NCBI GenBank assembly: GCA_044892525.1
Contig: CM097885.1
Span: 33,916,001 to 33,980,000, forward strand
Length of the DNA: 64,000 nucleotides
Reading direction: 5' to 3'
Origin: Schmidtea polychroa
Lineage: Eukaryota
The notes under the pieces are model-generated. The model saw only the letters and a list, made by a program, of their open reading frames with translations, was not told the DNA's origin and made no database searches. The translations under genes were made by a program, and so were the position numbers. This document shows, in pieces, positions 26,502 to 48,823 of the stretch. The first letter of the stretch is position 1; each line of letters opens with the position of its first letter.

Positions 26502-26964
26502 AAAGGTTGATTTAGAAACTATTTGCAAATGGATTCAATTATCATGGGATGCAGTTAGTGAGGCAATTATTATCAAAGGATTCAAGAAATGTTGTTTGAG
26601 TAATGCTATGGATGGATCAGAAGACGATGTTATTTGGCAGGACGATATATCTGATGTAGGGAATGAGGATGATGATATGGAAAATGAATTAATGTTTGAA
26701 GAAGTGGACGAGTCCATTGAGATTGAGAATTTGATAAAAAGTGAAGATGAAAATAATGATCTCTGTAATGAAAAAAACATTCTGTAACTAATAAAGAAAT
26801 ATTTTGTATTAATTTATGCTTTATTTCCCTTGCCCATACCGGGTTTTCAGAAAATTTTCTGAGTAGGAAAAAATATTTCCTGTTATACCCATGTATAAGA
26901 CGCACCACGATTATCATCCCCAAAAGTGATGAAAAAAAAGCGTCTTATATTCGGATAATTACGG
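26502..26964 (+). mobile_element. 3' fragment of a pogo/Tc2-type DNA transposon inside the LTR element
   Basis: Peptide ..SWDAVSEAIIIKGFKKCCLSNAMDGSEDDVIW with an acidic tail (pogo-type transposase C-terminus), then the TIR-like end CGTCTTATATTCGGATAATTACGG followed by TA. Confidence 0.75.
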
Positions 26965-28387
26965 TATTTACTTTCATTGATTTCTCTCTATACTTTGTCA
27001 ATCTCCCGAGTCGTTTTACATAAGTTTTAGAATTCATTTTCTACGTACCCTGGGTGTCTGTGATGTTCGCCTATTTTGCAAAGTTTTTCACTGCCTTTTA
27101 ACTTAGTTCTCGTGCCTTTGTCACGAAGATTTTATTTCGATTTGTTTTTGCTCTATTTTTGTACCGTGATTTTATTTTTTCGCAGTTATTCTCGATTGTC
27201 TTTGGTTCAGATTTATTTTTCGAGTTACCAGCAAGCTTAGTTCTTGTTTTTGTTCTTTTACTTAACGCTTTTGTTCATTTTGTTCATTTCTATTCGTGAT
27301 GTTTCGATGTCTTTTCTTGTCTTTACTTTCTTTTACTTTCAGTAGAATCTGTTGACTCGCTCGGTTTCGTCTGGTAAACTCATCTCTTTATCTATAATGT
27401 TGTTCGTCTCAGATTCACATTTGCAGAAGCTAAGACATGGTTATCATTTGCTTTATTTATCGTTTGGTACTTTGTTATCTGTCGAGTTTTATCGTATTTT
27501 TCATTTGGATGTTTATTCAATCGTTTTTATGGTTTGGTATTTCCATTTTACCGATGCATTTAACATCCTTGGGTACTCTACCCTTGGGTTGGTATGCGTA
27601 GAAGGTATTACCTGTAGAGTATAATTGGTTTAAATAGTCCTTATCATACACTGTATGTATCGACAACTCAATACCAGAATCATATATAGCTTGCTTTTTC
27701 CTAAACCCCCTAATCCATACATTCTTATATATCATTTGCATATAATCATTCATACCATTACATATTCATTTATCAGTATATTCTCAAAAAGTTCCCCTTC
27801 TAAAGCCGCTATCATTCCCTCGGTTTATCCATTCACTAATCAACGTAATAACAATTAACATTTAATAATTCATTGACATAAATATTATCAAGAGCCTGCA
27901 TAACCAATCCTCAACCAATTGCTGGCCCATCATTCAACCATTCAACCAAACAAGGACACATTATCAAGGAGAAGACTTATTTATTTTCATAAAATTAGCT
28001 TATCTTACTTATCCTATTGTCAAACCTTGAATTTACTGAAATCCGGATGTAACGATATTCATACATTATTCTTTTGTTCTGGGTGTATCCAACCATTTTT
28101 AGCAAAGAACATTCCGTCTATCTTCGAAATAGAGTAATTTTGTCGAAACCAATTAATTACGATTTGCTACTTCGTATGATTTATAATTTCCTAATAAATT
28201 CCTATATGCACTGCTAGCAATTTCCTCGAAACAGATTATTAATTCCATACACACGATAATTGATTTTTGATTACGCCTAAGATTTATTTGCAAACCACAG
28301 CCTGTAACACAATATCATGATTTTATAGGAGTCAATAATGCACAATTCGATCAAGCTCCAATTACGAGCACTCGATGTATAGAAGCG

Positions 28388-29905
28388 AGTAGGTAGATAG
28401 TGGCCTACGGGAACAATTACCCCCCCCCCGGGGGGGGGGGGGGGTTTGTTCCCAAATTTTTATTACGCAATTGTTCCCAACTCATTTTTTTGCTTTCAGG
28501 GATTTTTGGTCCAAATTTTTTTTTATCACACTATAGTGAGAGGGTCTTGATGGTCCTGGGAATTTCTATACAAAAATCCGACTATCAATAAAAAAGTCAA
28601 GGATTATTCACACTATAGTGAGGGGGTCTCGATGGTCCTGGGATTTTCAATACAAATAAAATTTTTTCTATACAAAAATCCGACTATCAATAAAAAAGTC
28701 AAGGATTATTCACACTATAGTGAGGGGGTCTCGATGGTCCTGGGATTTTCAATACAAATAAAATTTTTTCAATACAAAAATCCGACTACCACTAAAAAAG
28801 CCAAGGATTATTCACACTATAGTGAGGGGGTCTCGATGGTCCTGGGATTTTCAATACAAAAAATTTTTTTCAATACAAAAAGCTGGTCTACACTAAAAAA
28901 GCCAAGGAATTTTCAGACTATAGTGAGGAGGTCTCGATGGTCCTGAGAAATAGGTGGTCTACACTAAAAAACGTGGTAAATTTTTCAATTACAGTAAATT
29001 ACGGTCCAAATTTTTCAATTAAAGTAAATAATGGTTCTAAAAATTAAATTAAAGTTAATTATGGCTCAAATTTTTCAAATAAGGTAATTATGGTTCTAAA
29101 AAATTAAATTAAAGTTAATTATGGCTCAAATTTTTTAATTAAAGTAAATAATGGTTCTAAAAATTAAATTAAAGTAAATTATGGTTCTAAAATATTAAAT
29201 TACAGTAAATTATGGTCCAGATTTTTCAATTAAAGTAAATAATGGTTCTAAAAATTAAATTAAAGTTAATTATGGCTCAAATTTTTCAATTACAGTAAAT
29301 AATGGTTCTAAAAATTAAATTAAAGTAAATTAAGGTTCTAAAAAATTAAATTAAAGTTAATTAAGGTCTAAATTTAAAATTAAGTAATCAATGGTAAAAA
29401 ATTTTAAATAAGTAATAATTTTTAAATAAGTAAATTAAAGTAATAATTTTTAAATAAGTAAATTAAAGTAATGTAATAAGTAAATTAAAGTAAGATTTTA
29501 AAATTTATTAACAAAAAGTTGAAGGTGTTTGAGAATTGAAATTTTTTAATGGAAATTTTTATGAAATATTTTTTTAAGTAATTTTTAATGGAAATTTTTA
29601 TGAAATATTTTTTTAAGTAATTTTTAATGGAAATTTTTATGAAATATTTTTTTAGGTAATTTTTAATGGATATTTTTATGAAATATTTTTTTTAAGTAAT
29701 TTTTAATGGAAATTTTTATGAAATAATTTTTTAAGTAATTTTTAATGGAAATTTTTATGAAATATTTTTTTAGGTAATTTTTAATGGAAATTTTTATGAA
29801 ATAATTTTTTAAGTAATTTTTAATGGAAATTTTTATGAAATATTTTTCAATGATAATTTTAGATGGAAATTTTTAAGATAACTTTTAATGAAAATTTTAA
29901 CGAAA

Positions 29906-29946
<41 letters not shown>

Positions 29947-30025
29947 TATCAACCAAATACATAAAAATGAACTAGACACATAAAACACAAACAATTAACA
30001 AATGTAAAGATATAAAATTTATTCA
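28388..30025 (+). repeat. Left TIR of the Polinton, with internal tandem arrays
   Basis: Reverse complement of 44526-46320 apart from array copy number. Contains a C10G15 tract, ~102-bp units with CACTATAGTG, ~29-bp and ~39-bp AT-rich arrays, and (AAT)n. Confidence 0.95.
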
Positions 30026-30366
30026 TCCAATATTTGCTTGTAATAAGCTCTTCTTAATTCTGCTAGTAAAATATGAACAACTTCTTTCATCTTATATTCT
30101 TGGCAGCATCTACATCTAAACGGACATGGTAATTTCATCGGATCCATACATACTTCACAATCGTCTATGCATTTAAATCTTGATTCTTGTACAGATTCGA
30201 AATGTCTTCGTATAAGTTCTTCTATATTGATCCCAGTTAATTGCTTGATTCTATAAGCTAATAATTCCGGAGCACAATATGAAAGTCTGTTCTTTATATT
30301 CGGGAACAATTCTTCCATCTTCGTTAATATAGTCTGGAATATGTAAGCTTGCTTATCGTCATCCAT
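30019..30366 (-). CDS. Polinton accessory protein of unknown function, 115 aa, with a Cys cluster
   Basis: ATG in an AAAAATG context; C-IDD-C-EV-C..C-PFR-C-R-CC. The stop codon overlaps an AATAAA at the TIR edge. Confidence 0.7.
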   Translation of the reverse strand: MDDDKQAYIFQTILTKMEELFPNIKNRLSYCAPELLAYRIKQLTGINIEELIRRHFESVQESRFKCIDDCEVCMDPMKLPCPFRCRCCQEYKMKEVVHILLAELRRAYYKQILDE

Positions 30367-30429
30367 TTTTGAATTTTTGTTATTGTAGATATTCAGTTAA
30401 TTTAAACACAATTAATTAAATTAATTTAA

Positions 30430-30906
30430 TTAACTTAATAAATATTCCAATATTTCTTCATTTGTTGTGATATTTATAGTTAATGATTTAATGAATTTCT
30501 GAATTTCTTGAATTTGATTAAAATAATCAAATGTTTTAATCCCTAATATAACAACTTTCCCACTTGAAAAAACATTTACACATAGGGGGTTATACTTGAG
30601 AATACGTAAAGCTGGAAATATTTCAGGCTCGTAGTAACTATCGGTTTTCCTTGACAATGCATTTAAATCAATGCATGTACCCATATCTAGCGTTAATGTA
30701 ATTGATTGGATTTGTAAATCTTGAATCTGATATTTGAGATCGCCTTCCTGTAATGGTTTCTTACATCCCATTATCCTACATTTCCCGCTCTTGAAGAATA
30801 AAATTGGATATTTTCCACTTCTGTCCACGACATGTTGAGGTTTTCCTGATGGAAACTTCATTCCATTAACTACACATCTTCCTCTATAATTAATGTTGCT
30901 GATCAT
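30430..30906 (-). CDS. TATA-binding-protein (TBP)-like protein, about 158 aa from ATG 30906
   Basis: Two TBP-type repeats: ISNIN..ILFFKSGKCRIMGCK and IQSITLTLDM..IDLNAL..YEPEIFPAL..VNVFSSGKVVILGIK. Canonical TBP has LQNIV..ALIFSSGKMVCTGAK and IQNMV..YEPELFPGL..LLIFVSGKVVLTGAK. Confidence 0.9.
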   Translation of the reverse strand: MISNINYRGRCVVNGMKFPSGKPQHVVDRSGKYPILFFKSGKCRIMGCKKPLQEGDLKYQIQDLQIQSITLTLDMGTCIDLNALSRKTDSYYEPEIFPALRILKYNPLCVNVFSSGKVVILGIKTFDYFNQIQEIQKFIKSLTINITTNEEILEYLLS

Positions 30907-30956
30907 TCTAATTATTGTAATTATAAACAAATTAAATAAAATAATTTAATTAAAAA

Positions 30957-31580
30957 ATGGAATTAAGAAATGACGCAGTATATCAAATAGTTGGACCTAG
31001 TGGAAGCGGGAAAACTTTATTTGTATGTAATTTATTACAATCAAACATGTTTAAATCTAAATTTAATAAAATATATTGGCATCGAGGTGCAGATGAAGAA
31101 CATGGATTGACTCAAAACAGTTTCTGTAAATTAAAAATGACAATAATTAAAGGATTTGATAAAAATTGGTCATCTAGATTACGTCAAGGTGATGTTATTA
31201 TTATCGATGATCTGTACCAGGAAGCAAATAAAGAAAAAGATTTTAATAATTTATTTACAAAAATCAGTAGACATTGTGGAGTTACAGTTATTTTCATTAC
31301 ACAAAATCTTTTTCATCAAGGTGGAAGTCATAGAACACGTAATTTAAATGTCCAATATTTAATTATTTTCAAAAATCCTAGAGATCAAACAATAATAGAT
31401 TTTCTTGCAAGACAAGCTTATCCAAATAATAGAAAATTTTTGATTGATTCATTCCAAGATGCAACAAAAATTCCTCATGGATATTTATTTTTTGATTTTA
31501 CACAACAATGTCCAGATGATATGCGTATTAGAACTGATATTTTTAATATAAACGGTGTTACGATTTATAAACAAAACTAA
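30957..31580 (+). CDS. DNA packaging ATPase (A32/FtsK-HerA-like)
   Basis: Walker A GPSGSGKT, Walker B IIIDD, SRH arginine motif, ITQNLF, FKNPRD and the GYL..D motif typical of Polinton ATPases. Confidence 0.95.
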   Translation: MELRNDAVYQIVGPSGSGKTLFVCNLLQSNMFKSKFNKIYWHRGADEEHGLTQNSFCKLKMTIIKGFDKNWSSRLRQGDVIIIDDLYQEANKEKDFNNLFTKISRHCGVTVIFITQNLFHQGGSHRTRNLNVQYLIIFKNPRDQTIIDFLARQAYPNNRKFLIDSFQDATKIPHGYLFFDFTQQCPDDMRIRTDIFNINGVTIYKQN

Positions 31581-31599
31581 AAACTAAATAAAATTAATC

Positions 31600-31752
31600 A
31601 TGTCATTTAAAAAAGTAGTTGTTAAAAATCTTCCAAGTGTTTTGAAGAAAATTACCAAGAAAACAAAACGTACAAAGAAAACAAAAAGTGGATCAAAAGG
31701 TACAAAAACTACAAAAACTAAGAAACAAATCAAGAAGTGGATCAAATTATAA
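31600..31752 (+). CDS. Small Lys/Thr-rich basic protein, 50 aa, putative DNA-condensing core protein; not in the ORF track
   Basis: MSFKKVVVKNLPSVLKKITKKTKRTKKTKSGSKGTKTTKTKKQIKKWIKL*. It fills the gap between the ATPase and the next gene. Confidence 0.65.
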   Translation: MSFKKVVVKNLPSVLKKITKKTKRTKKTKSGSKGTKTTKTKKQIKKWIKL

Positions 31753-31781
31753 ACAAACCGTCGCGTAAATTAATAATAATA

Positions 31782-32108
31782 ATGAAATTTGAACGGAGCT
31801 TACCATATTTTAATGCTTTAATAAAGGCACCAAATTCGAAACGAATATCAATTTTACAGTCTTTTCCATCATTTGTTATTGATGATTTACTTGAAGTTAT
31901 TATAAATGTTGTCCGCGGTAATGTAAATATAACTAAAGCTAAAAGATTAGTATTGCAAAGACATAAAAGATCACTTTTATCTCTAGTTGATACAAAAAAT
32001 CGTCGTCTAATGAGAAAGATAATATATAAACAAAAAGGAGGGTTCTTGGGTGCACTAATTCCTATAGTCTTATCTGCAATTAGTGCAATCTCATCATTAA
32101 GTTCTTAA
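31782..32108 (+). CDS. Conserved small Polinton protein (PW-like) with QKGG and a C-terminal amphipathic/hydrophobic peptide
   Basis: E.I.NV..GN......K..L..HK..L..L and QKGGFLGALIPIVLSAI, a pattern I recognise from animal Polintons. The family name is from memory. Confidence 0.75.
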   Translation: MKFERSLPYFNALIKAPNSKRISILQSFPSFVIDDLLEVIINVVRGNVNITKAKRLVLQRHKRSLLSLVDTKNRRLMRKIIYKQKGGFLGALIPIVLSAISAISSLSS

Positions 32109-32362
32109 TGGGTATCAAGAGTTCATTACCAAATAAAAATATTGTAGATTTTAATATTTTGACAACTTGTTGTAATAATGAAGGAAACGTATCACAAAAC
32201 CAACACAAAAGTGGAAAAAATGAAAACAAAAGTGAAAACAAATGTGAAAACAAAAGTGAAAAAAGTGAAAACAATAGAGAAAAAGTTAAAAACCATATGG
32301 ACAAACCCAAAAGATCCAGATGGTTTTGGTGGCGTAGAAAAATTAACAAAACGAGTGAATAA
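32108..32362 (+). CDS. Putative overprinted myristoylated protein, 84 aa, overlapping the integrase 5' end
   Basis: ATG overlaps the upstream stop (TAATG). It starts MGIKSS (MGxxxS), has CC at residues 21-22 and a basic/aromatic C-terminus. Confidence 0.45.
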   Translation: MGIKSSLPNKNIVDFNILTTCCNNEGNVSQNQHKSGKNENKSENKCENKSEKSENNREKVKNHMDKPKRSRWFWWRRKINKTSE

Positions 32363-33326
32363 TTCAAAGAAAGAAACTCAGAAATGGTTATCTAATCAAT
32401 TAGCATATAGTTTAAATAAACCAATGTTGAAACGTTTTCCAACAAGACCATACAAAACAATTGGAAACAATGATGTATGGCAAATGGATTTGATGGAAAT
32501 GATACCTTATTCAAAAATTAACAAGGGGTACAAATATATTCTGACTTGTATAGATGTTTTTAATAGATATGCTCGTGCTGTTCCTACAAAAACTAAATCT
32601 GCAAATGAAATGGCTGATGCGATAAAAGAAATGTTTGCAGATGGTAAACCTATTAATTTACAAACGGATTTAGGTAATTAAATTTAATTAATTAATTTTT
32701 AAATATATGATTTAGGTAAAGAATTTTATAACAGCAAAGTTAAAGAGGTTATCAAAGGAATAAACCATTACTCGGTATTTTCTCAGTTCAAAGCTGCTCA
32801 CGTAGAACGATTTAATCGAACTTTAAGAGAACGCTTGAAAAAATATTTTGTATATCAAGGTAATAAAACTTGGATAAATGTTTTGCCAAAAATTATTTTC
32901 AGTTACAATCATTCACCACACAGAGGATTAAAAGGACAAACACCTGCAGATTTTACTAAAAATCAAACAAAGTCAGAAAAAATCAATAAACCGAAATACA
33001 AGGTTGGTGATCATGTAAGAATTAGTAAAATCAATTCTTCACCATTCATCAAAAACTTTGATAATAATTGGAGTGATGAAGTATATCAAATTTTTAAAAT
33101 CGATACAAAACAGAATCCTGTCATGTATGTGATAGTTGATCATGAAAACAAACCAATCACTGGTAAATTCTATGAACAAGAACTCCAAGTAATTCCTGCT
33201 CCTACAATATTTAGAATTCAAAAGATTTTAAAAACCAAAAAAGATGGTAAATATAAACAATACTATGTTAAATGGCATGGATATGAAACTCCATCTTGGA
33301 TATCTGAAAATCAATTGATTAAATAA
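32178..33326 (+). CDS. int: Retroviral-type (RVE/DDE) integrase with C-terminal chromodomain; exons 32178-32673 and 32716-33326
   Basis: WQMDL, LTCIDVF. Removing the 42-nt GT..AG intron (32674-32715) gives QTDLGKEFYN, followed by KAAHVERFNRTL, YN...H, YKVGDHVRI and the chromo-like YYVKWHGY...SWI. Confidence 0.95.
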
Positions 33327-33331
33327 ATATT

Positions 33332-34357
33332 ATGAAAGATTTTTATATTATTTTACCTTCTAATAGTTGTCCTCTTATTTTCCCCGATAATGAAGCTAGT
33401 AAATTTAATGTCGAATTTCAAAATCCTATTTACTTGGATGGTGAATGGGAAGTAGCTCTCATGGACTTTACCTTTGTGTATAATACTTTTCCTTATTACA
33501 GTAATTCATTGATACAATATGAAAAAGTAAAGATGGATGAAGAAATTAAATATTTTAGAATAAATAATTCAAATCGAACCTTTGAAGTAATAAATCCTAA
33601 AAATACTCCTGAAGTTGACATGTTCATTGAAAGATATGAGAATTTGGTTGTTGTTTGTCCACATGTTCCATTTAAAATAACGTTTCCAGATTTTGAACAT
33701 GCTATTAAATTTGGATTAAAATCAGTATCGGTTATTAGTGATAGTGATCATTTGCGAATTAAATTACCAAAATTTACAGAAGATAAAACAATTGATCAAT
33801 TTGGTATAATTATAAGTGTTGTTGAAAAAACAAAATTTGAACATTATTTCGAAGATGAACTATACATCAATACTTTATCTGAAATACATGGTCAGTTAAT
33901 GACAATTAATCCGTCTCCCTTTAAAGATTTAAAAATACAAAATAATGAATTGGTTAAAATAAGTCTTGCTGATAACATTTCATCAATAACCTTTGATAAA
34001 AATTTAACAAAAACATTGGGATTAAAGAAACAAACATTTACAGAGAAAGAAATTATTGGAACAAAAATTCCAAAGTTATTTAATCATCATCAACAAATGT
34101 TTATTTACTCAAATATTATCGAACCATTGACTGTTGGAGATGTAAGAGTTCCGTTATTGAAATCTATTTGGATAAAAAAATATGAACAAGGAGAAATTGT
34201 GCAACTAGAAATGAAGAATCCAATGTATCTACCAATTTCTAATTCTTCTATAAACAACATTGAAATCAATATACGAGATGATAGTGGAAAATTAATAAAA
34301 TTTAGTAGAGATACAAAAACACACTTGACATTACATTTTCGTAAAATAAATGATTAA
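33332..34357 (+). CDS. Minor capsid (penton-like, single jelly-roll) protein, copy 1
   Basis: FY..LPSNS, N....F....NPI.L.GEWEVAL, FIYSNIIEP..VGD...PLL, P.YLP.....I..IEI.IRD..G and TLHFR motifs of Polinton minor capsid proteins. Confidence 0.88.
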   Translation: MKDFYIILPSNSCPLIFPDNEASKFNVEFQNPIYLDGEWEVALMDFTFVYNTFPYYSNSLIQYEKVKMDEEIKYFRINNSNRTFEVINPKNTPEVDMFIERYENLVVVCPHVPFKITFPDFEHAIKFGLKSVSVISDSDHLRIKLPKFTEDKTIDQFGIIISVVEKTKFEHYFEDELYINTLSEIHGQLMTINPSPFKDLKIQNNELVKISLADNISSITFDKNLTKTLGLKKQTFTEKEIIGTKIPKLFNHHQQMFIYSNIIEPLTVGDVRVPLLKSIWIKKYEQGEIVQLEMKNPMYLPISNSSINNIEINIRDDSGKLIKFSRDTKTHLTLHFRKIND

Positions 34358-35366
34358 AAAAGATTTTTATGTGAATTTACCTTCTAATAGTTGTCCTCAG
34401 ACTCATCCAAATAATGAAGCTGGTAAATTTAATGTCGAATTTCAAAATCCTATTTACTTGGATGGTGAATGGGAAGTAGCTCTCATGGACTTTACCTTTG
34501 TGTATAATTATTTTCCTTTTTACAGTAATTCAAATGTCAAATATAGTAAAAGTGTATTACATACAAGTTATGAATACTTTTACTTTAACCAAGAAAAAAA
34601 TGAATATACAATCAGTCACGACTCTCCATTTTATTTAATATATATTGATGGAAATACATTGAACATTAATTGTAAATATTTTCCTTTTAAAGTAGAATTC
34701 GATAGTATTAAAGAAGCGCAGAAATTGGGATTTTCAGAAAAAGAAATAACTTTTAAAAAAGCCTTGAACCAAATCACTATTCCTCCAAATAATCGAAAAA
34801 TAAAGTTTGATACAATTCGACTAACTATACAATATTATTACGATGTCGAGTATACAGATACATTCGAAGAAAATATCATTACAGATCTTTCACAAATAAA
34901 TGATCAACTATCACTCTTTTATCCTCGTCCATTTAAATCTGTTGATATTCAAAAAGGAAAAATCGTTAAAATTGTAATGGATGATGATGTCAGTAAAGTT
35001 CAATTTAGTAAATTTTTAGCCAATAGTTTAGGATTATTAGAAGAAGCATATACTGACAAACTTATTATCGGTTTTAAAGAACCTGAAGTATTACAACGCA
35101 ATCAACAATTGATGATCTATACAAATATTATCGAACCTATTATTGTTGGTGATACATTGGTCCCTCTTTTGAAATGTATTTGGGTGGAAAAACATAAAAA
35201 AGATGATTTAGTACAAATAATTGAAAAGAATCCAATGTACTTACCTGTATCGTCTTCATATATAAACAATATAGAAATCAATATACGAGATGATAGTGGA
35301 AAATATATATTTGGAAAAGAAGATAAAACATACTTGACATTACATTTTCGTAAAATAAATGAGTAA
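34350..35366 (+). CDS. Minor capsid (penton-like) protein, copy 2
   Basis: Same N- and C-terminal motifs as copy 1, with a divergent middle. Confidence 0.88.
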   Translation: MIKKDFYVNLPSNSCPQTHPNNEAGKFNVEFQNPIYLDGEWEVALMDFTFVYNYFPFYSNSNVKYSKSVLHTSYEYFYFNQEKNEYTISHDSPFYLIYIDGNTLNINCKYFPFKVEFDSIKEAQKLGFSEKEITFKKALNQITIPPNNRKIKFDTIRLTIQYYYDVEYTDTFEENIITDLSQINDQLSLFYPRPFKSVDIQKGKIVKIVMDDDVSKVQFSKFLANSLGLLEEAYTDKLIIGFKEPEVLQRNQQLMIYTNIIEPIIVGDTLVPLLKCIWVEKHKKDDLVQIIEKNPMYLPVSSSYINNIEINIRDDSGKYIFGKEDKTYLTLHFRKINE

Positions 35367-35757
35367 TCCTGACATAATACATTTTTATAGTAGTAACCAA
35401 TCGGGTGGTGATTTACCATATTTTGTTGGTAAACAATATGGAACCGGTTGGTTGAAGACAATAGGTAGATTTGCACTCCCAATTCTTAGACGAATAGGAA
35501 ATTTTGGTATGAAAACAGCTAATGACGTAATAAATAACAATGCAAATATCTTGCCTGCTTTAAAATCAAATGCAATTTCTGAAATTAAAGAATCATTACC
35601 AGCTGTGATGCAACATTTACCTGAAGTAATTAATAAAGTATCCGATGTATTTAAAAATGATAAAGAACAAAAAGGCGGAATACTTAAACGCCGAAAAATT
35701 ATGAAGAAACATATAAACAAAAGAATGAAAGGATATGGTACCATCTTTGAAAAATGA
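35359..35757 (+). CDS. Small Polinton core-like protein with multiple Gly-containing protease-site motifs
   Basis: Y..NQSGG..YF.G.QYGTGWLK.I.R...PIL amphipathic segment, QKGG and a basic tail ending GTIF. It lies between mCP and MCP. Confidence 0.75.
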   Translation: MSNPDIIHFYSSNQSGGDLPYFVGKQYGTGWLKTIGRFALPILRRIGNFGMKTANDVINNNANILPALKSNAISEIKESLPAVMQHLPEVINKVSDVFKNDKEQKGGILKRRKIMKKHINKRMKGYGTIFEK

Positions 35758-36977
35758 TTAGTGCTAAATCAGAATTATGTCTTTTTGATAGACCTTCTCC
35801 CCAAGCAGTGATTGAACATGGAGCATTTGAAGATGTATACCCAAGAAATTCAATTACAGATGCCGGTTCTTCTTCGATTCAATTTTACATAAATGGATCG
35901 CAGACTGAATATTTAGATTTGAATGATACTTTGTTATATATTCAATTGAAAGTTGTTAATAATTTAGGTGAGAATTTAGGCGAATCAGAAGTAATTCCAA
36001 ATAATTTCTTCTTCCAAACCCTTTTTAAAGATGTTGAATTAATTTTTAATTCAATCAAAGTTGAAGGATCAAATGATAGATTTGCCCACAAAGCATTAAT
36101 TGAAACACTTATAAATTATGACGGAGATACTAAACGAACATCTTTAGGTGGAATGGGGTATACTAACAAAGATCTTACGAGAAAAACATGGATTGAAAAA
36201 TCAAAATCCTTTTCTTTATGTTCCCCACTTCAATTTGATTTCTTTGATCAACCTAAATATTTACTACCAGGTGTTAGTGTTCAAATTAAATTAACAAGAT
36301 CAAATCCAACACTTAGTTTAACTTGTGCGAAAATTGAACCGAAAATTTTATTATTAGACGCAAAATTAATGGTTAGAAGAGTTCGTGTTGAACCATCGGT
36401 TTTGGCAGGACATCAAATTGGTCTGTCTACCAAAAATGCAATTTATCCTTTAAGAAGCAAAGAAGTTGTTGATTTCTCATTACCTATTGGTTCTTCCTCT
36501 TTTTATAAAGAACAAATATTTGGAGATAGACGATTACCTAATTTTATACTTGTTGCATTTCAATCTAGTAAAAGATTTAGTGGATCGTTTTCAGAATCAT
36601 TTTCTTTATTTGATCACTTTAATGTCAAGTCCATAACTTTAAGTAAAGGAAGTGATTATCGCGAAAAATATAGTCAAGATTTTGAGAATGATGATTATAG
36701 TACAAGTTATATGCAATCGATTATTAGAAATATGGGTTATCTAAATAAAAATATGAATTGTGGTATCACCATGTCTGATTTTAAGAGCAAGTATCCATTC
36801 TTTACATTCGTATTGGCACCAGATTTTGATCTTCATCAAAGTCAGTTACCACAAAGTGGAAATTTGCGATTAGATATTAAATTCGCATCTTCACTTACTG
36901 AAGCTGTTTCTGTAATCGTATATGGAGTTTTTGAAAAAGAAATTCAAATTACATCTACTCGTACTGTTTTGGTATAA
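35754..36977 (+). CDS. Major capsid protein (double jelly-roll)
   Basis: SEL.LF..P..Q..I, I.F.I.G....YLDL..T.LY, FF.Q.KYL.PGV...IKL.R and GNLRLDIKF...L...V.VIVY..FE..I.I...R.V, the pattern of Polinton MCP (PY). Confidence 0.92.
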   Translation: MISAKSELCLFDRPSPQAVIEHGAFEDVYPRNSITDAGSSSIQFYINGSQTEYLDLNDTLLYIQLKVVNNLGENLGESEVIPNNFFFQTLFKDVELIFNSIKVEGSNDRFAHKALIETLINYDGDTKRTSLGGMGYTNKDLTRKTWIEKSKSFSLCSPLQFDFFDQPKYLLPGVSVQIKLTRSNPTLSLTCAKIEPKILLLDAKLMVRRVRVEPSVLAGHQIGLSTKNAIYPLRSKEVVDFSLPIGSSSFYKEQIFGDRRLPNFILVAFQSSKRFSGSFSESFSLFDHFNVKSITLSKGSDYREKYSQDFENDDYSTSYMQSIIRNMGYLNKNMNCGITMSDFKSKYPFFTFVLAPDFDLHQSQLPQSGNLRLDIKFASSLTEAVSVIVYGVFEKEIQITSTRTVLV

Positions 36978-37011
36978 TATAAACCAAATATCGAAAATCA
37001 ATTAATCAAAT

Positions 37012-37384
37012 ATGAAGTAAGAATTAATTTAAATTATTTAATTATTATTAATTTAGTTCTATTCAGATACACGTTATCGGAAGAAAATTACTAGGAAAAG
37101 AATTTCTAGGTGTTTTCCCATTAGACAAAATACCTTATTTAGATGTCAACAAAGCAATAATTGTAAATACTCAATCTGCTAATCTGAATGGTGAACATTG
37201 GCTTGCAGTATACGTGAAACCAGACAAAATATATGCATTTGATCCAATGGGATTCTATTATCCACCTATATTAATCAATAAACTACAATCAATGCCAATT
37301 GAATACAATCGAATACGTTACCAAAATCCTATAACAAAAACATGTGGACAACATTGTTTGGCTTGGTTAAAGTCAATGAAATAA
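37012..37384 (+). CDS. Adenain-like (C5/Ulp1-type) maturation cysteine protease, 110 aa; exons 37012-37016 and 37057-37384; not in the ORF track
   Basis: A 40-nt intron GTAAGA..TTTAG (37017-37056) gives MNSIQI..FLGVFPLDKIP..IVNT......GEHWLA..FDPMG..Q......CGQHC, with the His-Asp-Cys triad and oxyanion Gln present. Confidence 0.93.
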
Positions 37385-37472
37385 ATTTTTATAATAAAAA
37401 GTTGTTTTTAAAATATTCACAAAAATAATATTCACAATTAAAATATTCACAAAAATTCACAATTAAAATAAT

Positions 37473-38555
37473 TTATTCACAAAACAAAATAATATTCACA
37501 ATAAATTTTACTAGCATATTTTTCAAAAAATCATCCCAAGTAATTTGCTCCATCAACAATCTTATCATTCGAGGTATTTCTAATAAACTATTGATATCTT
37601 CTATATTTAAAATATTATTGACAATAAATTGTATATTTCCCAAATATACTAAATATTGGTTACTATAATTCTCCAAACATATTTCCATTAATTCATATTC
37701 ATAACCTAAATAAATCGTTAATTTTTTTCTTGTTTCTAATGTTATGTTAGCATCTAAAAATAATTCAATTTTGCCAAATAGTCGTCTCAATTGATTTGAT
37801 ATCAAATTTTGATGAACTAATGTAATATTAGTTAACAGGTCTTGTTCAAATCTTATATAATCAATTTCTAATGGGTCTAAAATTGTATCTTCATCAAATT
37901 CTTGGAATGGAATAACAACATCATCTTCAGTCACAGTGAAATCTCGTAAAAATACATCGGAAATAAAAGATGTATACAGAGCTTTTTTGCGGATATTGGT
38001 TATAAAATTATCTTTAAAGTATATTTGATCTTCAATAAAAGAACCAATTATCCTTTCAATAAATTCTTCAGTATTTTCATTAATTAGTAATTTTCTAATT
38101 AAATGGTATATTTTCGTCAAATAATCTGATGCCAAATCAGTATTTTGAACGAGTATTTCAATTCCGAAAAAACTGGTATTCAAAGATTCTTCGAGCACAA
38201 TTATATATTTTTTAAAATTTGCAAAAGGAGAATTTCGATTACATTCTCTGATACTATTTAATATATATTCCAAATCCACAGGTGTTTTTCTTATATATTT
38301 CATCAGTTTGCGGTTGATATTTCTAATACATGATCTAAAACTAAGTTTATAAAATTCATGTTTAAGCTGAACTAATCTCATATAATCTATAAATAAATCT
38401 TTCTTCTTTAATAAATTCAATTCAAGTCTGTCAAGCGGACAAAGAGTAGAAATATTTAAACACTCAAATAAACAATTAGTACAAAACGAATGGTTACAGC
38501 CAGTAGTTATAAACATTTCTATAGCGTATTCAGTGTAGCAAACAATGCATTCCAT
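37473..38555 (-). CDS. N-terminal RING-finger protein, putative E3 ubiquitin ligase, about 360 aa from ATG 38555
   Basis: CIVC-x13-CNHSFCTNC-x10-CPLDR (C3HC3D RING variant) followed by a helical-looking region I do not recognise. Confidence 0.85.
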   Translation of the reverse strand: MECIVCYTEYAIEMFITTGCNHSFCTNCLFECLNISTLCPLDRLELNLLKKKDLFIDYMRLVQLKHEFYKLSFRSCIRNINRKLMKYIRKTPVDLEYILNSIRECNRNSPFANFKKYIIVLEESLNTSFFGIEILVQNTDLASDYLTKIYHLIRKLLINENTEEFIERIIGSFIEDQIYFKDNFITNIRKKALYTSFISDVFLRDFTVTEDDVVIPFQEFDEDTILDPLEIDYIRFEQDLLTNITLVHQNLISNQLRRLFGKIELFLDANITLETRKKLTIYLGYEYELMEICLENYSNQYLVYLGNIQFIVNNILNIEDINSLLEIPRMIRLLMEQITWDDFLKNMLVKFIVNIILFCE

Positions 38556-38744
38556 TTTTATTTTTCGATAAGTATATATCAAAATTTTGAATAATAGAGT
38601 AAGTAAATGATTTTTTATAATTTATAAATAAATCAATTGGATAAAATTAATTTAAATTATTTCAATAAATTTTTAGTTTATTATTTAAATTATTTCAATA
38701 AATTTTAGTTTATTATTTAAATTATTTCAATAAATTTTTAATTA

Positions 38745-38945
38745 AGTTAATTATTATGTAAGATATTTAATCCGTTAATTATTACGCTTGGTATTTAATC
38801 CTTTAATTATTACGCAAGTTATTTAATCCTTTAATTATTACGCTTGGTATCAAATTATTACGCTTGGTATCAAATTTAATTATTACGTAATGTATTAAGT
38901 AGAAGAAGAAGTATATAAATGATTTGTTTTTAAAAATTGGTCATA
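38745..38945 (+). promoter_or_regulatory. Candidate bidirectional promoter/enhancer between the RING gene and the pPolB leader
   Basis: Six AATTATTA(C/T)G repeats including TTATGTAA, TTACGCAA and TTACGTAA, then TATATAAA at 38912 and TCATA about 30 nt downstream. Confidence 0.55.
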
Positions 38946-39016
38946 AATTGATAGTACCAAGGATCGTAAGAATTTTATTTTTTAATTATTAAAATTTAAT
39001 TATTTTTAGATAAAAA

Positions 39017-39074
39017 ATGAATATTAATGCAACAATGAAAAATGTTAATAATGCAACAATGAAAAATGACAAAT
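39017..39074 (+). CDS. pPolB: Predicted first coding exon of pPolB (MNINATMKNVNNATMKNDK+T)
   Basis: Preceded by a 44-nt UTR intron (38966-39009). Ends at a consensus GTAAGT donor in phase 1, matching the phase-1 TTTTAG acceptor at 40299. The long pPolB ORF as called starts at TTG. Confidence 0.6.
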
Positions 39075-39504
39075 GTAAGTATTTTTATCAATTTTTAAAT
39101 AATATTTTATAATGAAATTATTATTATTTTTAATAAAATTTTATTTTAAGAGTAAAAATAAGAGTAAAAAATTTTTTAATAATATTTTATAATGAAATTA
39201 ATAATATTTTTAATAAAATTTTATTTTAAGAGTAAAAATAAGAGTAAAAAATTTTTTTAATAATATTTTATAATGAAATTAATAATATTTTTAAAAATGA
39301 TTATTAATATTTTTAATAAAATTTTATCTTAAGAGTAAAAATAAGGGTAAATCCCTCGTAAAATTTTTTTATAATGATGAAATTATTAACATTTTTAAAT
39401 AATATTTTATAATGAAATTATTATTAATGATATTTTTTTAATGATATTTATTTTGAAATAAGGGGAAATCCCTCGCAAATTTTTTTTTTTATAATGATAA
39501 TAAT

Positions 39505-39643
39505 AATGTAGTCTACAGTGAGCACGTAGCTACATAATAGTCTGCAGTGAGCATGCAGTAGTCTTTAATATAATAATGTAGTCTACAGTGAGCACGTAGC
39601 TACATAATAGTCTGCAGTGAGCATGCAGTACTCTTTAATAATA
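39505..39643. repeat. 69-bp tandem duplication, locally GC-richer and with short palindromes
   Basis: AATGTAGTCTACAGTGAGCACGTAGCTACATAATAGTCTGCAGTGAGCATGCAGTA.. occurs twice. Confidence 0.9.
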
Positions 39644-39713
39644 ATCTGACCCTTATTAAATACTTATTAACTTTAAAATTTTTTCAACAACATTTAAAAT
39701 AACACTTAAATAT

Positions 39714-40153
39714 TTATTCAAAAACATTTGTAATTTTCCAAATTGGTTTAATTATAACTCCATTTATCTTGACTCCTTGAATAAGTATTCGCACTTTTGA
39801 TTTTTTATCTTCGTCTAATTTACACCCTTTTTCACAATTGATAAATGTAAATTTTTCATTAAAAATCATTTCTTTATTAATTAATTTAAGAATTTCTCCA
39901 AGATTTTTTCTATCTTCTTCCCCAATATCTCCAATTTGAATATTGAATTGACATGTTTTTAAATTAACTGGTTCCTATAACAAATTAATATTAAATAATT
40001 AAATAAAAAAAAATAAATTACCTTGAACGAATAAGTAATAGGATATTTCAAATAGTACATATTATATTGAAGGAATTGAATAGGAGGTTTACATACCATA
40101 CCTATAACTGATGTACTATTTTCTTCTAATAGGATACTATTTATAGTAGACAT
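39714..40153 (-). CDS. Spliced 130-aa protein (exons 40153-40022 and 39974-39714), possibly an OB-fold ssDNA-binding protein
   Basis: A 47-nt phase-0 GTAATT..ATAG intron joins a 44-codon exon to a stop-free 86-codon exon ending ..KVRILIQGVKINGVIIKPIWKITNVFE*. The function is inferred. Confidence 0.7.
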
Positions 40154-40299
40154 TTTTTGTTAAATTTATTTCATTAAATTATCATTTATAGCAAATAATT
40201 AATTTTGATTGGATGCATACATGCAAAATTATAAGAAAATTTTAATAGTATTATTTTTATCAAATGTTTTAGCCAAATTTTTAAATGTATATATTTTAG

Positions 40300-43200
40300 G
40301 TATACTTTATCCAAATTATTGTTCGTCGAAAGAACATAATAATTGCCATTCTATAATGGAGAATTATTATTCTAAAAAATACTATAATAAAACTTTTTTT
40401 ATATGCCCCATATGTAAGATTAGCGAGCCCTTAACATATAGCGTTTTTTATAATAAGCATAAACAACATTTAGATAGGTTCAATTCTAAAAAAGATGTTA
40501 TTTTTAAACGTCCTTCAACTATTGAAATAAATACTACTAATAAAAAAATTAAATTAAATACATTTGTTGAATCCCAGGTCGGATTAGTTGATGAATCCAA
40601 TGATGGATTGCCTTTTGCTGAATCCAATGTTGGATTGTCTTTTGCTGAATCCAATGATGGATTGCCTTTTGCTGAATCCAATGTTGGATTGTCTTTTGCT
40701 GAATCCAATGATGGATTGTCTTTTGCTGAATCCGAGGTCGGATTAGTTGATGAATCCTATAATGAATTTGATAATCTTTCACTCGACTCTTGGGATGTAG
40801 GCGAACCCAATAATGAATTTGATAATCTTTCGCTCGACTCTTGGGATGTAGGCGAACCCAATAATGAATTTGATAATCTTTCACTCGACTCTTGGGATGT
40901 AGGCGAACCCAATAATGAATTTGATAATCTTTCACTCGACTCTTGGGATGTAGGCGAACCCAATAATGAATTTGATAATCTTTCACTCGACTCTTCGACT
41001 ACTAATGTACAAATAGGAGGTAATGTACCCATAGTACAAAAAGATTTAAGGGGTACACATCAAATTTTAAGTCTAAATACAAGTAACTTGAATATAAAGG
41101 AAATAATATTTCCAGAACAATTAATTATAAAATTACGAGATATTATTAACGAATTAGGCTCCGTCAAAATTCAATTCGGAATAACAATCGAATTTGAAAA
41201 AGACGGGGAAATAAAGGTTAATAATATTTCGAATTACGCAAAACCTTTAACTGCCTCATTTTTTGACGAAGGCATTAGAGAACTAAACGAGAAAATAAGT
41301 AATATCACAGAGTTAGGAAGTAGCTGGATCATAAAAAAAATAACTGAAATTCACTTCACCATAACAAAGATAAGTAGGCTAAGTAGATTAAGTGGTAGGA
41401 GTTTCATTGAACTACCTACTTGTCTAAAAAATAAAAAATGCTTAATTAATGTAAAAAACACCGACGATTCGTGTTTTTTATATAGCATTTTAGCTATTTT
41501 AAAATATGATGAAGTTATTAAACAATATAGAAATAGAACATCCAGTTATAATTTATCTGAGTTAATATATAATCCATTAGACTTACCAATGAAATTAAAA
41601 GATATTAGAAAATTCGAGGCCAAAAATCCTGGTTTAATAATTAATGTTTTTTCTTATGACAATAACAAACAATTAATAGATAATTACGTTTTAAAACACC
41701 CCCATTTAGACATTATACATCGTTCCAAAGTTTTAAATGGAACAGTAATTAATTTACTATTATTAAATAAAGGGAACAATTTCCATTACATTGCTATAAG
41801 CAATTTAAATAGGTTACTGAATTGCCACATAAACACTAGTTGTCCTACACGCATACAATCAATATGGTGTCATCGTTGTTTGAATGGTTTTAAAAATAGA
41901 AACGCACTAGAAAAACATGAAATATTATGCAAACGCAATCAATTAGGAACTACTCTTTATACTTTCCCTCAAAATAAATTCTTACAGTTTACTGACTGGT
42001 CGAAAACAGTAACTCCTCCTTTCGTAGTTTATGCCGATTTTGAGGCTATTTTACCTTGTGATAATGTTCATTTTCAGCGACACATGCCAATATCTGCTGG
42101 TCTTTTACTAGTAAATAACTTTGACGGATCTAAATCCTATCAACAGTTTATAGGTTTAGATTGCGTCGAGAGTTTTTTAAGTGCTATAGAGGATATAGCA
42201 TTAAATAAGGTTCTTCCTTTTTATTATAAAATGGGTAGGAAACCAATGATTAAATTAACTAAAAATGAGCAACAACAATTCATTAATTCAACGGTTTGTT
42301 ATCTTTGTTTGAAATCTATCGTGGATCCTGTTAGAGATCACGATCATTTTACGGGCAAATACTTGGGTGCAGCTTGTAGCACATGTAACGTAAATAGAAA
42401 AATAAATAAAATTTTGCCTATCGTATTTCACAACTTGAAGGGATACGATATGCATCATATACTTAAATATGGATTAAATAAATTTAAAAATTGGAATTTA
42501 GGGTGCATCCCAATAACTACGGAAAAATTTATATCTTTGATTGCTCATTTAGGCAAAATTAGCATAAGATTCATTGATTCATATCAATTTGTCAATGATT
42601 CTTTGGCTAAAGCAGTCAAAACTTTGAATTCTTTGACTTTTACTAATTCTGCTTTTTCTGGCACCATAGTAGGTGAAAAAGGAATCTTCCCTTATAATTT
42701 CGCCACTTCTTTAGATGTTCTACAAACTACGTATGAATTACCACCAATCTGGGAGGGTGTCACTGAGCTTGAGTATGAAAAAGCTCAGGAGATTTGGGTA
42801 GAATCTAATTGCAGAACTTTATTAGATTATATGATGATCTACCTAAAACTTGATTGTTTTCTTTTGGCTGATTTCTTTCATCAGTTTAGGTTGAAATCAA
42901 TTGCTCACAATAGATTAGAACCTTTGAATTATTTCGGAATTCCAGGCATGTCTTGGTCTTCTGCATTAATGTCTTTAAATGAACCAATTGAACTCATAAC
43001 TGAAAACGAAATGTTTAGCTTTTATGAGGGTGGAATAAGAGGCGGTCTTACTTTTGTGAATAAGCATTACGTAAAAACCGACGAGAACACCGAGTTACTT
43101 TATATAGATATTAATAATCTTTATGGGTGGGCTTTAAGTCAATCATTACCTTGTGGCGAATTTTGTTGGGTTCTTGATGGATTTGATAAAATACTGGATG

Positions 43201-44519
43201 AATGTAGGAATTTAAATCTTGAATCTTTGTCTTATGGATACACACTTGAAGTTGATCTTGTAATTCCTTCTGAGCTTCATGATAAGTTGGATGATTTCCC
43301 TGTAGCTGCTGAAAAAATGAAACCTGCTGGGTCTAAGGTTGAAAAATTATTATTAACTCATCTTCCAAAATCTAATTATGTTATTCATTGGAGATTATTA
43401 AAATTATATTTAGAACTTGGTGTTAAAGTAACACGTGTAAATAGAGGTGTAAGATTTAAGCAATCACCAATTTTTAAAAAATATATAGATACAAATACCG
43501 AATTAAGATCAAAAAGCGTAAATAACTTAGATAAAAATTATTATAAATTGCTAAATAACAGTTTATACGGCAAAACAGTTGAAAATTTAAAGAGAAGAAT
43601 GAATCTTCGTCTTTGTACAACTGCCGGTAAATTAGTTAAATATTCGTCAAAACCGACTTTTAAAAAATCTATTAAAATAGCTGATAATTTAATTGCAACA
43701 CTTTTGAATTCAGATTCTATATGTTTAGATAGACCGAGTTACATTGGTCAATCTGTACTTGATCTATCTAAACTTAGAATGTATGAATTGCAATATAAGG
43801 ATCTGGAATCATTTCGCAATGAGTTTAATTGTAAAATTAATATCGTTGCTGGTGATACAGATTCTTTTTTCCTCGAAGTCATTAACTGCAAACTTGAGGT
43901 TCTTTTACCTGCAATGATTCGAGATAATTTATTAGATACTTCCAATTACAATAGTTGTCATTCCTTATATAGTAAGAACCTTGATTCAGTCATTGGAAAG
44001 TTCAAAGACGAGAATAAAGGTCTTAAATATAAGGAGTGGGTTTTTCTTAGACCTAAATGTTATAGCTTGTTGGGTGATGAGGAAACAAAAAAGGCTAAAG
44101 GTGTAACATTGAAAGGTAGTGACATAAAACATCAGTCATACCTAGATTGTTATAACACTAACCAGATTTTTTCGGTTCCTCAGACTAAAATAACAAGCAA
44201 AAATCATCAAATTTTTACAATTAAAAACACAAAAATAGCACTAACAAACAAAGATGACAAAAGGGTTTGGGTGGGGAAAAATGCTAGTCTTGCATATGGG
44301 CATGTAAGATTAAGTGAATTAAATATTGGAGAAAATGTTGGAGAAATTGTTGCAGAAAATGTTTCAGAAAATGATGGAGAAGATGTTTCAGAAAATGATG
44401 GAGAAAATGATGGAGAAGATGAGGAAGAATTAAATGAAGATTTTGGAGAAGATGAGGAAGAATTTAATGAAGAAGATGACATCGATATCGATGACGTTAT
44501 TTTGTCCGATGAGGACTAA
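40300..44519 (+). CDS. pPolB: Protein-primed family B DNA polymerase, main exon, with terminal-protein/OTU-like N-terminal region and Endonuclease VII-like insert
   Basis: ExoI YADFE, ExoII FHNLKGYD, ExoIII YLKLD, KGIFPY, motif A YIDINNLYG, motif B KLLNNSLYGKT, motif C GDTDS, GKFKDE, KCY, KAKGV, DDKR, and the CYLC..RDHDH.TG..LG.AC..CN insert. The frame is uninterrupted. Confidence 0.97.
40569..40995 (+). repeat. In-frame tandem repeats in the pPolB N-terminus (27-bp and 51-bp units)
   Basis: ESN(D/V)GL(P/S)FA x5 flanked by ESxVGLVD, then NEFDNLSLDSWDVGEPN x4 plus a partial fifth copy. Confidence 0.95.
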
Positions 44520-44525
44520 TTTTAT

Positions 44526-44604
44526 TGAATAAATTTTATATCTTTACATTTGTTAATTGTTTGTGTTTTATGTGTCTAGTTCATTTTTATGTATTTGGTC
44601 GATA

Positions 44605-44681
<77 letters not shown>

Positions 44682-46320
44682 TTTCGTTAAAATTTTCATT
44701 TGACTTTGAAAAATATTTCATAAAAATTTTCATTAAAAGTTATCTTAAAAATTTCCATCTAAAATTATCATTGAAAAATATTTCATAAAAATTTCCATTA
44801 AAAATTACCTAAAAAAAATATTTCATAAAAATTTCCATTAAAAAATTTCAATTCTCAAACACCTTCAACTTTTTGTTAATAAATTTTAAAATCTTACTTT
44901 AATTTACTTATTACATTACTTTAATTTACTTATTTAAAAATTATTACTTTAATTTACTTATTTAAAAATTATTACTTATTTAAAATTTTTTACCATTGAT
45001 TACTTAATTTTAAATTTAGACCTTAATTAACTTTAATTTAATTTTTTAGAACCTTAATTTACTTTAATTTAATTTTTAGAACCATTATTTACTGTAATTG
45101 AAAAATTTGAGCCATAATTAACTTTAATTTAATTTTTAGAACCATTATTTACTTTAATTGAAAAATCTGGACCATAATTTACTGTAATTTAATTTTTTAG
45201 AACCATAATTTACTTTAATTTAATTTTTAGAACCATTATTTACTTTAATTAAAAAATTTGAGCCATAATTAACTTTAATTTAATTTTTTAGAACCATAAT
45301 TACCTTATTTGAAAAATTTGAGCCATAATTAACTTTAATTTAATTTTTAGAACCATTATTTACTTTAATTGAAAAATTTGGACCGTAATTTACTGTAATT
45401 GAAAAATTTACCACGTTTTTTAGTGTAGACCACCTATTTCTCAGGACCAAGGAGACTCACCTCACTATAGCGTGATAAATCCTTGGCTTTTTTATTGATA
45501 GTCGGATTTTTGTATTGAAAATATCCTGAGACCTTAAATTACCATGCTTCTTTATTGAAGACTCACCTCACTATAGTCTGAAAAATCCTTGGCTTTTTTA
45601 GTGGTAGTCGGATTTTTGTATTGAAAATATCCTGAGACCTTAAATTACCACGTTTTTTTTTAGTGTAGACCACCTATTTCTCAGGACCAAGGAGACTCAC
45701 CTCACTATAGTCTGAAAAATCCTTGGCTTTTTTATTGGTAGTAGGATTTTTGTATTGAAAATCCCAGGACCATCGAGACCCCTTCACTATAGCGTGAATA
45801 ATCCTTGGCTTTTTTAGTGGTAGTCGGATTTTTGTATAGAAAAAATTTTATTTGTATTGAAAATCCCAGGACCATCAAGACCCCCTCACTATAGTGTGAA
45901 TAATCCTTGGCTTTTTTAGTGGTAGTCGGATTTTTGTATTGAAAAAAATTTTTTGTATTGAAAATCCCAGGACCATCGAGACCCCCTCACTATAGTGTGA
46001 ATAATCCTTGGCTTTTTTAGTGGTAGTCGGATTTTTGTATAGAAAAAATTTTATTTGTATTGAAAATCCCAGGACCATCGAGACCCCCTCACTATAGTGT
46101 GAATAATCCTTGACTTTTTTATTGATAGTCGGATTTTTGTATAGAAATTCCCAGGACCATCAAGACCCTCTCACTATAGTGTGATAAAAAAAAATTTGGA
46201 CCAAAAATCCCTGAAAGCAAAAAAATGAGTTGGGAACAATTGCGTAATAAAAATTTGGGAACAAACCCCCCCCCCCCGGGGGGGGGGGTAATTGTTCCCG
46301 TAGGCCACTATCTACCTACT
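44526..46320 (-). repeat. Right TIR of the Polinton
   Basis: Inverted copy of 28388-30025 with different array copy numbers. Confidence 0.95.
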
Positions 46321-48804: not shown

Positions 48805-48823
48805 AATCCCGGCTGAGCCCCCA
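48805..48823 (-). other. Primer-binding site, tRNA-Pro type
   Basis: Minus strand TGGGGGCTCAGCCGGGATT, 7 nt inside the 5' LTR. It closely resembles the tRNA-Pro PBS TGGGGGCTCGTCCGGGAT. Confidence 0.88.

Follow-up and report, generated by a model that had tools for sequence, protein, structure and literature searches.

A Polinton, probably young and coding-intact, inside an LTR element of Schmidtea polychroa

We analyzed 64,000 nucleotides of the Schmidtea polychroa genome (GenBank assembly GCA_044892525.1, contig CM097885.1, positions 33,916,001 to 33,980,000; hereafter the window), which contain a Polinton, or Maverick, within a long terminal repeat (LTR) element. The Polinton is real, and it is probably young and coding-intact. 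The likely history is that the LTR element inserted recently and that a young Polinton with intact genes then integrated into it. A preliminary description of this DNA had called the Polinton intact and young, and both words are supported: its introns have parallels in relatives, the two LTRs differ at 1 of 1543 positions, and the coding sequence is undecayed. The data demonstrate coding capacity; activity is plausible. Intact and recently mobile Polintons are already documented in fish and nematodes, so a single copy adds little. Young copies with intact genes do make this a sensible genome in which to seek the particles of animal Mavericks, and the conservation of introns across this Polinton lineage is a more lasting result than the single copy.

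The Polinton and its host element

The Polinton spans 28388-46320 (17,933 bp), has AGTAG ends, and is bounded by terminal inverted repeats (TIRs) and a target-site duplication (TSD):

28382..28387, no strand: left 6-bp TSD, GAAGCG
28388..30025, plus strand: left TIR, 1638 bp, starting with AGTAG and holding 102-, 30-, and 39-bp tandem arrays
44526..46320, minus strand: right TIR, 1795 bp, richer than the left TIR in 102-bp-type units and poorer in 39-bp units
46321..46326, no strand: right 6-bp TSD, GAAGCG

The perfect 6-bp duplication that had been claimed is indeed present on either side of 28388-46320, and given the composition of the flanks, such a match has a probability of about 3.5e-5 by chance. 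Over its outermost 33 bases, each end is the exact reverse complement of the other, and the terminal 16-mer is found at both tips of the Polinton only (0 expected from 100 shuffles). TIRs with AG...CT ends and a 6-bp TSD are hallmarks of Polintons. The TIRs are imperfect in their internal arrays, with 14 substitutions and 10 gaps between them; they share perfect runs of 382, 255, and 254 bp. A palindrome of a C-run and a G-run lies about 33 bp from each tip (28421-28445 and 46267-46289), with unequal run lengths at the two ends. The inner ends of both TIRs abut stop codons (those of a 115-amino-acid open reading frame and of the polymerase), and the TIRs may supply the 3' ends of those genes.

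Homologues, gene orders, and introns were counted in 80 metagenome loci (with L-numbers) that were fetched by alignment of the major capsid protein (MCP), and the Pfam scan covered 19 proteins of the window. The core genes are:

30957..31580, plus strand: packaging ATPase (Pox_A32, E 8e-7) with Walker A and B motifs; the closest loci are 71-75% identical
31782..32108, plus strand: small conserved gene whose C-terminal part has a motif like that of adenovirus pX (PF05829, E 2e-6), in 13 of the 80 loci; presumably PW-like
32178..33326, plus strand: rve integrase (INT) with a chromodomain, from Pfam; predicted intron 32674-32715
33332..34357, plus strand: minor capsid protein (mCP, penton) copy 1, 341 amino acids (aa), 47% identical to copy 2
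34350..35366, plus strand: mCP copy 2, 338 aa; model pLDDT 83, top fold match the mavirus penton (E 4.5e-9)
35359..35757, plus strand: small conserved gene, 132 aa, in 52 of the 80 loci; presumably PZ-like
35754..36977, plus strand: double jelly-roll MCP, 407 aa; model pLDDT 96
37012..37384, plus strand: adenain-type protease (PRO; PF00770, E 1e-5) with His, Asp, and Gln/Cys motifs
40221..44519, plus strand: DNA polymerase B of the protein-primed type (pPolB) with an HNH/endonuclease-VII insertion; alignment to relatives puts the start probably near 40359

Judged from models and motifs, these include the features of a polintovirus: a double jelly-roll MCP, a single jelly-roll penton, a packaging ATPase, and an adenain protease. 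The MCP model matches the MCP folds of an iridovirus, PBCV-1, mavirus, and Sputnik (E about 1e-14), and 270 relatives match the protein at an E of 1e-30 or lower. Residues 270-1370 of pPolB have 306 protein matches, the best of which are 53-60% identical and colinear over 99-100%. Aligned with 8 relatives, pPolB retains its exonuclease and polymerase motifs and has no missing block. Pfam found Endonuclease_7 in it at E 0.001, while the window protein gave no match to PF03175 at E 0.01; many of the top relatives carry PF03175, and PF02945 also occurs among them. In the N-terminal region of pPolB (40561-41006) there are in-frame tandem expansions of 27 bp and 51 bp that have no counterpart in the 8 relatives of the alignment.

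The order ATPase-PW-INT-mCP-PZ-MCP-PRO is common to the window and to those of the 80 loci that are long enough. The orientation of pPolB relative to the capsid genes varies: it is as in the window in L030 and opposite in L002, L008, L009, L010, and L027. Two pentons also occur in L027, L028, and L031. The first 180 bp of the two penton genes (33329-33508 and 34353-34532) are 91% identical in DNA, compared with 47% for the proteins overall, which suggests recent conversion of the 5' ends.

The host is an LTR element on the minus strand:

17373..17376 and 50374-50377, no strand: 4-bp TSD, ATAG
17377..18919, minus strand: 3' LTR, 1543 bp
19941..22574, minus strand: Gag-like open reading frame, 760 aa from the first ATG, open, with CCHC knuckles and no pol after it
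26480..26967, plus strand: 5'-truncated fragment inside the LTR element, with one terminal repeat only, which we take to be pogo/Tigger-like
48807..48824, minus strand: sequence like a primer-binding site (PBS), adjoining the 5' LTR; presumably similar to the 3' end of tRNA-Pro
48831..50373, minus strand: 5' LTR, 1543 bp, with 1 difference from the 3' LTR

The preliminary count of one difference between two 1543-bp LTRs was confirmed by alignment, so there is no substantial LTR divergence. The LTRs are bounded by TG...CA and differ only at 18353 (C) and 49807 (T); in a self-comparison of the window, they likewise show up as a direct repeat of 1.5 kb that has a single mismatch. The orientation follows from the PBS-like site beside the right LTR, the Gag-like reading frame, and the A-rich sense strand. 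Without the Polinton, the LTR element is 15,058 bp. It has a leader of about 8 kb before gag, and the Polinton lies 2.5 kb into this leader. The AT skew of the Polinton's two flanks is -0.06 and +0.07, as against -0.34 and -0.39 in the rest of the LTR element. As the flanks are alike in composition, they appear to be one segment that the Polinton interrupted.

The TG...CA LTRs, short TSD, PBS-like site, and Gag are features of Ty3/gypsy-like retrotransposons. Pol motifs were absent from all six frames of the LTR element, and none of the 69 frames that we scanned (all 29 minus-strand frames of at least 48 aa and 40 of 66 plus-strand frames) matched a pol family. With Gag and no pol, the element is non-autonomous. 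Gag had no homologues at E 0.001 among 7998 candidates. Its nearest Atlas clusters are commonest in Platyhelminthes, and the same is true of a neighboring CEP131-like exon. In plants, Gag-only non-autonomous LTR elements are known as TR-GAG. The element in the window resembles these in having LTRs, a PBS-like site, and Gag without pol. Unlike them, it is in an animal, is 15 kb long, and has a leader of about 8 kb before gag. It also contains a 13-bp tandem array (23058-23465); a clear polypurine tract was not seen.

Age and order of insertion

The divergence of the LTRs is 1/1543 or 0.065% (95% range 0.002-0.36%). If we assume yearly rates per site of between 2e-9 and 3e-8, which are not specific to this host, then the LTRs would be about 10,000-160,000 years old, with upper bounds of 60,000-900,000 years. 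Because the Polinton is inside the retroelement, this would be an upper bound on its age as well. The bound is independent of the Polinton's own repeats, which makes it useful, but it is soft. The coding sequence provides a second, independent bound. Introns apart, about 12.5 kb of Polinton coding sequence is free of stops and frameshifts. At 0.5% neutral divergence, the probability of seeing no decay would be between 0.04 (stops only) and 0.001 (with indels), under assumed fractions. So, under assumed rates, the divergence since insertion is limited to about 0.5%, and we are confident that the Polinton lies under that value.

Several observations weigh against such a recent date. A single LTR difference is a weak clock. 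Gene conversion can erase differences between LTRs and so overstate youth (PMC7251063; here and below, papers are cited for particular passages), and assembly polishing can likewise remove them. The TIRs are not identical, and those of their substitutions that do not recur in other array units correspond to 0.14-0.36%, which is above the point value for the LTRs and inside its range. Finally, the truncated pogo-like piece would be a sign of a longer history for the LTR element, if it was gained in this copy. We rejected the divergence of the TIRs as a clock because most of the differences are array rearrangements. Among 13 TIR substitutions examined, 8 recur in other array units and 5 do not, and 3 of these 5 are beside a rearranged block. 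The large gaps would reflect slippage or the exchange of units in tandem arrays during replication rather than age.

Could the nesting be older than the LTRs imply? Gene conversion or homogenization during assembly might have reset the clock, in which case the Polinton would be moderately old and well preserved, and its family might be silent. There is precedent in plants, where the nested element is more diverged than its host in 1042 of 4126 nested pairs (25%), so that ages appear inverted, and where longer LTRs are more similar (PMC7251063). The asymmetry of the TIRs and the pogo-like piece would also fit. But an older Polinton would not be expected to have about 12.5 kb of undecayed coding sequence, with its divergence limit of about 0.5%, or perfect runs of several hundred bases between its TIRs. 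Also, both TSDs are perfect and the Gag frame is open. We consider an older nesting unlikely.

The Polinton very probably inserted after the LTR element had retrotransposed. The preliminary description had proposed this order on the grounds that the Polinton retains a minus-strand intron, which would probably have been spliced out of the retroelement's RNA. The order still seems the likeliest, but the argument is weak, as the genomic RNA of retroelements is normally unspliced. Retroviruses and LTR elements export such RNA (PMC10309623), and the Burro LTR elements of planarians exceed 30 kb (PMC6431247), so both the retained intron and the size are compatible with co-mobilization. In that case, the Polinton would have entered a master LTR element earlier, the 33-kb composite would have been retrotransposed or segmentally duplicated, and the LTRs would date the composite. 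Besides the unspliced export and the size of Burro, it favors this history that the Gag and the neighboring exon are nearest to flatworm clusters and that the non-autonomous LTR element already has foreign pieces. On the other hand, four minus-strand genes of the Polinton would have their own 3' ends, with the polyadenylation sites that these need, in the sense of the retroelement's RNA. In this RNA, the two inverted repeats of 1.6 kb would pair with each other as a long duplex. For these two reasons, and since DNA elements commonly land in LTR elements, later insertion is the simplest order. Even with co-mobilization, the undecayed coding sequence would keep the Polinton fairly young. Counts of AATAAA (34 in the Polinton and 37 in the interior of the LTR element) do not discriminate between the orders. 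Co-mobilization seems quite improbable to us.

Introns and the intactness of the genes

It had been claimed that the core genes are open once introns are removed, and this is what we found. The genes for pPolB, the ATPase, the MCP, the two mCPs, and the two small core proteins are open without splicing, while the integrase and the protease require the removal of GT-AG introns of 42 and 40 nt. The Polinton is therefore intact only if these are spliced. For each of three short introns, there is outside support from relatives. It is highly probable, as far as can be judged from comparisons of sequence, that all three are functional, and we infer that they are spliced.

The protease intron (37017-37056; 40 nt, GT-AG) comes after the first five coding bases. 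The same pattern, with 37-47 nt, is present in 15 of the 40 loci that have a protease match: L001-L005, L008, L010, L011, L013, L015-L017, L027, L028, and L030, whose MCPs are 47-58% identical to that of the window. Put another way, 15 of the 16 loci with an MCP at least 47% identical have the intron, and it is missing from the 24 loci that are more distant. Several of these loci are near-duplicates, so there are fewer than 15 independent cases. Since the positions of introns are conserved across the lineage, spliced genes appear to be normal there and are not a sign of decay. In contrast, intact Mavericks from vertebrates are reported to be intronless (PMC8097293).

The minus-strand intron that had been described also appears to be genuine. 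It interrupts this gene:

39711..40153, minus strand: two-exon gene (intron 39975-40021), perhaps for a protein that binds single-stranded DNA; its homologues in L027 and L008 are intronless reading frames

The intron is 47 nt and GT-AG. Exon 2 matches the reading frames of L027 and L008, and if both exons are joined with an X at the junction, they align with these frames end to end. The joined exons score 31.9 bits, as compared to 26.1 +/- 1.4 bits with shuffled first exons, and just 2 of 300 shuffles reach 31.9.

The integrase is the most difficult case. Its catalytic D, D, and E motifs are all present, but they are split over two exons by a 42-nt insert (32674-32715; GT-AG, 93% AT) directly after the second Asp. 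The insert and the protease intron are alike in size and AT content. On both sides of the insert there is an 11-bp direct repeat that contains the AG/GT junction (32667-32719), as would be the case had the intron been gained through duplication of its target. Some of the evidence counts against splicing. The insert carries in-frame stops; it is absent from all 14 loci that span the junction; and one homologue, P0273 (79% identity), reads through its position. Also, the 11-bp duplication itself supplies the donor and the acceptor, so the splice signals are not independent proof of splicing. However, a search with the frame of exon 1 gave 46 matches, among which P0271 (98%, with 3 residues that differ) stops at the identical residue, and P0272 (80%) and P0274 (74%) depart from homology at the equivalent motif. 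We read these breaks from the protein ends, and we left P0278 and P0300 uncounted: they too end close to the motif, but these may be contig ends. As the break recurs in P0271, P0272, and P0274, it is inherited rather than private, and it is most simply viewed as the heritage of a sub-lineage that gained an intron.

If the integrase insert were spliced poorly or not at all, then the copy would be young but defective, and its subfamily would need integrase in trans. The stops and the separation of the last catalytic Glu by the insert would fit with this, as would the absence of the insert from 14 of 14 loci and its form as a target duplication. But homologues down to 74% identity break at the equivalent position, exon 2 is open and conserved here, and an insert of 42 nt with 93% AT is much like the conserved protease intron. 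We view a defective copy as very unlikely. As for an artifact of assembly, TIR arrays and homopolymers are error-prone, but mis-joined repeats, or LTRs collapsed to one consensus, would not be expected to yield two independent TSDs of the right sizes with exact termini, nor were the TIRs collapsed into each other, so this explanation is extremely unlikely.

Mobility, relatives, and surroundings

The other genes of the Polinton include a TATA-binding protein (TBP):

30019..30366, minus strand: 115-aa accessory reading frame, its stop at the left TIR's inner edge; no match to a family
30430..30906, minus strand: compact TBP homologue, 158 aa (PF00352, E 3e-16), with homologues in 9 of the 80 loci
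31600..31752, plus strand: 50-aa lysine-rich reading frame; L027 has a similar basic frame at the equivalent place
37473..38555, minus strand: 360-aa accessory reading frame with an N-terminal RING finger, from Pfam

Combining these observations, we propose that a 15,058-bp Gag-only, Ty3/gypsy-like element was retrotransposed in trans, recently enough to leave a 4-bp TSD and near-identical LTRs. Later, a member of a TBP-carrying Polinton family would have entered its 5' leader by means of its own rve integrase, leaving the 6-bp TSD. This copy would rely on the host's spliceosome to remove three introns of 40-47 nt. It appears to have genes for its own synthesis (pPolB) and integration and a capsid module that is complete, with the MCP, two pentons, ATPase, and protease. 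In the published model, Polintons are excised as linear genomes, protein-primed pPolB copies these starting at the TIR ends, the rve integrase inserts them with a 6-bp stagger, and the ATPase, MCP, pentons, and protease may package them (PMC11131425). We also infer that the family was recently mobile. There is a slightly better than even chance that the family is mobile at present, and it is rather doubtful that it forms particles.

A more ambitious possibility, which we view as speculative, is that this is a Polinton lineage of an invertebrate, probably flatworm, host that still replicates, forms virions, depends on the spliceosome, and has its own TBP and a shared promoter word, TATAAAC. This word is found at most 120 bp upstream of 7 of the 10 plus-strand genes and of none of the 4 minus-strand genes (30922-36978), and for the ATPase, the basic frame, the PW-like gene, and the protease it is at 34-35 bp. 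This pattern fits with a private promoter of the capsid-side genes that might be read by the TBP. The dependence on the spliceosome would come from the conserved intron of the protease and from a newer one in the active site of the integrase that arose when a proto-splice site was duplicated. In such a lineage, the insertion would be recent enough for living animals to be polymorphic for it, and the host could give the first view of natural Polinton particles in an animal.

Vertebrate Mavericks are a useful comparison. Barreat and Katzourakis (2021) reported 134 intact Mavericks in 17 species and describe particles as unobserved (PMC8097293). Like those, the Polinton in the window has a 6-bp TSD, TIRs, AGT-type ends, a size within their range of 12.7-24.6 kb, and the core of pPolB, INT, ATPase, PRO, MCP, mCP, PW, and PZ (PMC8097293). 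In that study, intact copies had intronless core genes and TIRs of 46-1447 bp. Here, the integrase and the protease have introns (three are predicted in all), and the TIRs are longer and rich in arrays. Two pentons, the TBP homologue, and the RING protein also set it apart from the intact Mavericks (PMC8097293).

Similarly, the nematode Polintons of the pPolB2 class described by Jeong et al. (2023) include full-length copies with an HNH-type nuclease inside pPolB (PMC10748475). In C. briggsae, most copies are at strain-specific positions, which indicates recent mobility (PMC10748475). So recency was established by polymorphism among strains in nematodes, as compared to a host LTR pair and the lack of decay here. 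A fusogen was not seen in the window's element. Adintoviruses (Starrett et al. 2021) share the hexon, penton, adenain, packaging ATPase, rve integrase, and pX-like motif, and in some read sets their genomes occur with free ends beside integrated ones (PMC8502044). A figure legend in that paper lists TBP-like genes among the MELD viruses (PMC8502044). In protists, retroelements and Polinton-like elements nest mutually, as they do here, but the protist cases have a retrotransposon inside a virus-like element, which is the reverse of the nesting in the window (PMC12220804). In literature searches that covered titles and cited passages, none of the titles concerned dating a Polinton from the LTR pair of its host.

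The RING protein has no homologues in the 80 loci. L027 encodes a reading frame at 222-719 that we take to be like a ubiquitin-conjugating enzyme, and the RING gene of the window's element sits elsewhere. Together, these two proteins point to cargo from the ubiquitin pathway. The 50-aa lysine-rich protein has a putative role in condensing DNA.

As to distribution, near-identical Polinton DNA (at least half of 857 sampled core words) was in 9 of the 24 listed runs, from five studies, or four if the possible source is set aside; small shares in metagenome rows were left out of this count. None of the 24 is listed as an RNA run with such DNA, and one that may be either RNA or DNA has 0.61 of the words. 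These matches are to DNA of the family in several samples; they indicate neither this insertion nor activity. In a collection of viral contigs, alignments of pPolB and of the MCP gave no relatives and the 18-base terminus had no match, and none of 10 window proteins was present in a protein collection that was looked up by exact sequence.

Around the composite, a host gene like CEP131 has exons on the minus strand in 3933-16777 (Atlas 0.97 for 3936-4262), and the 33-kb composite is either 5' of this gene or within one of its introns. On the other side, at 53000-54839, there is a hAT/SPIN-like transposase that is frameshifted and carries a Spin-doc zinc finger. There are also decayed fragments, as well as a small element whose inverted ends are 27 bp long (2400-3211, 5691-6005, 15520-15700, and 51123-51354); the fragments are presumably like a pogo transposase, a gypsy integrase, and Hsp90.

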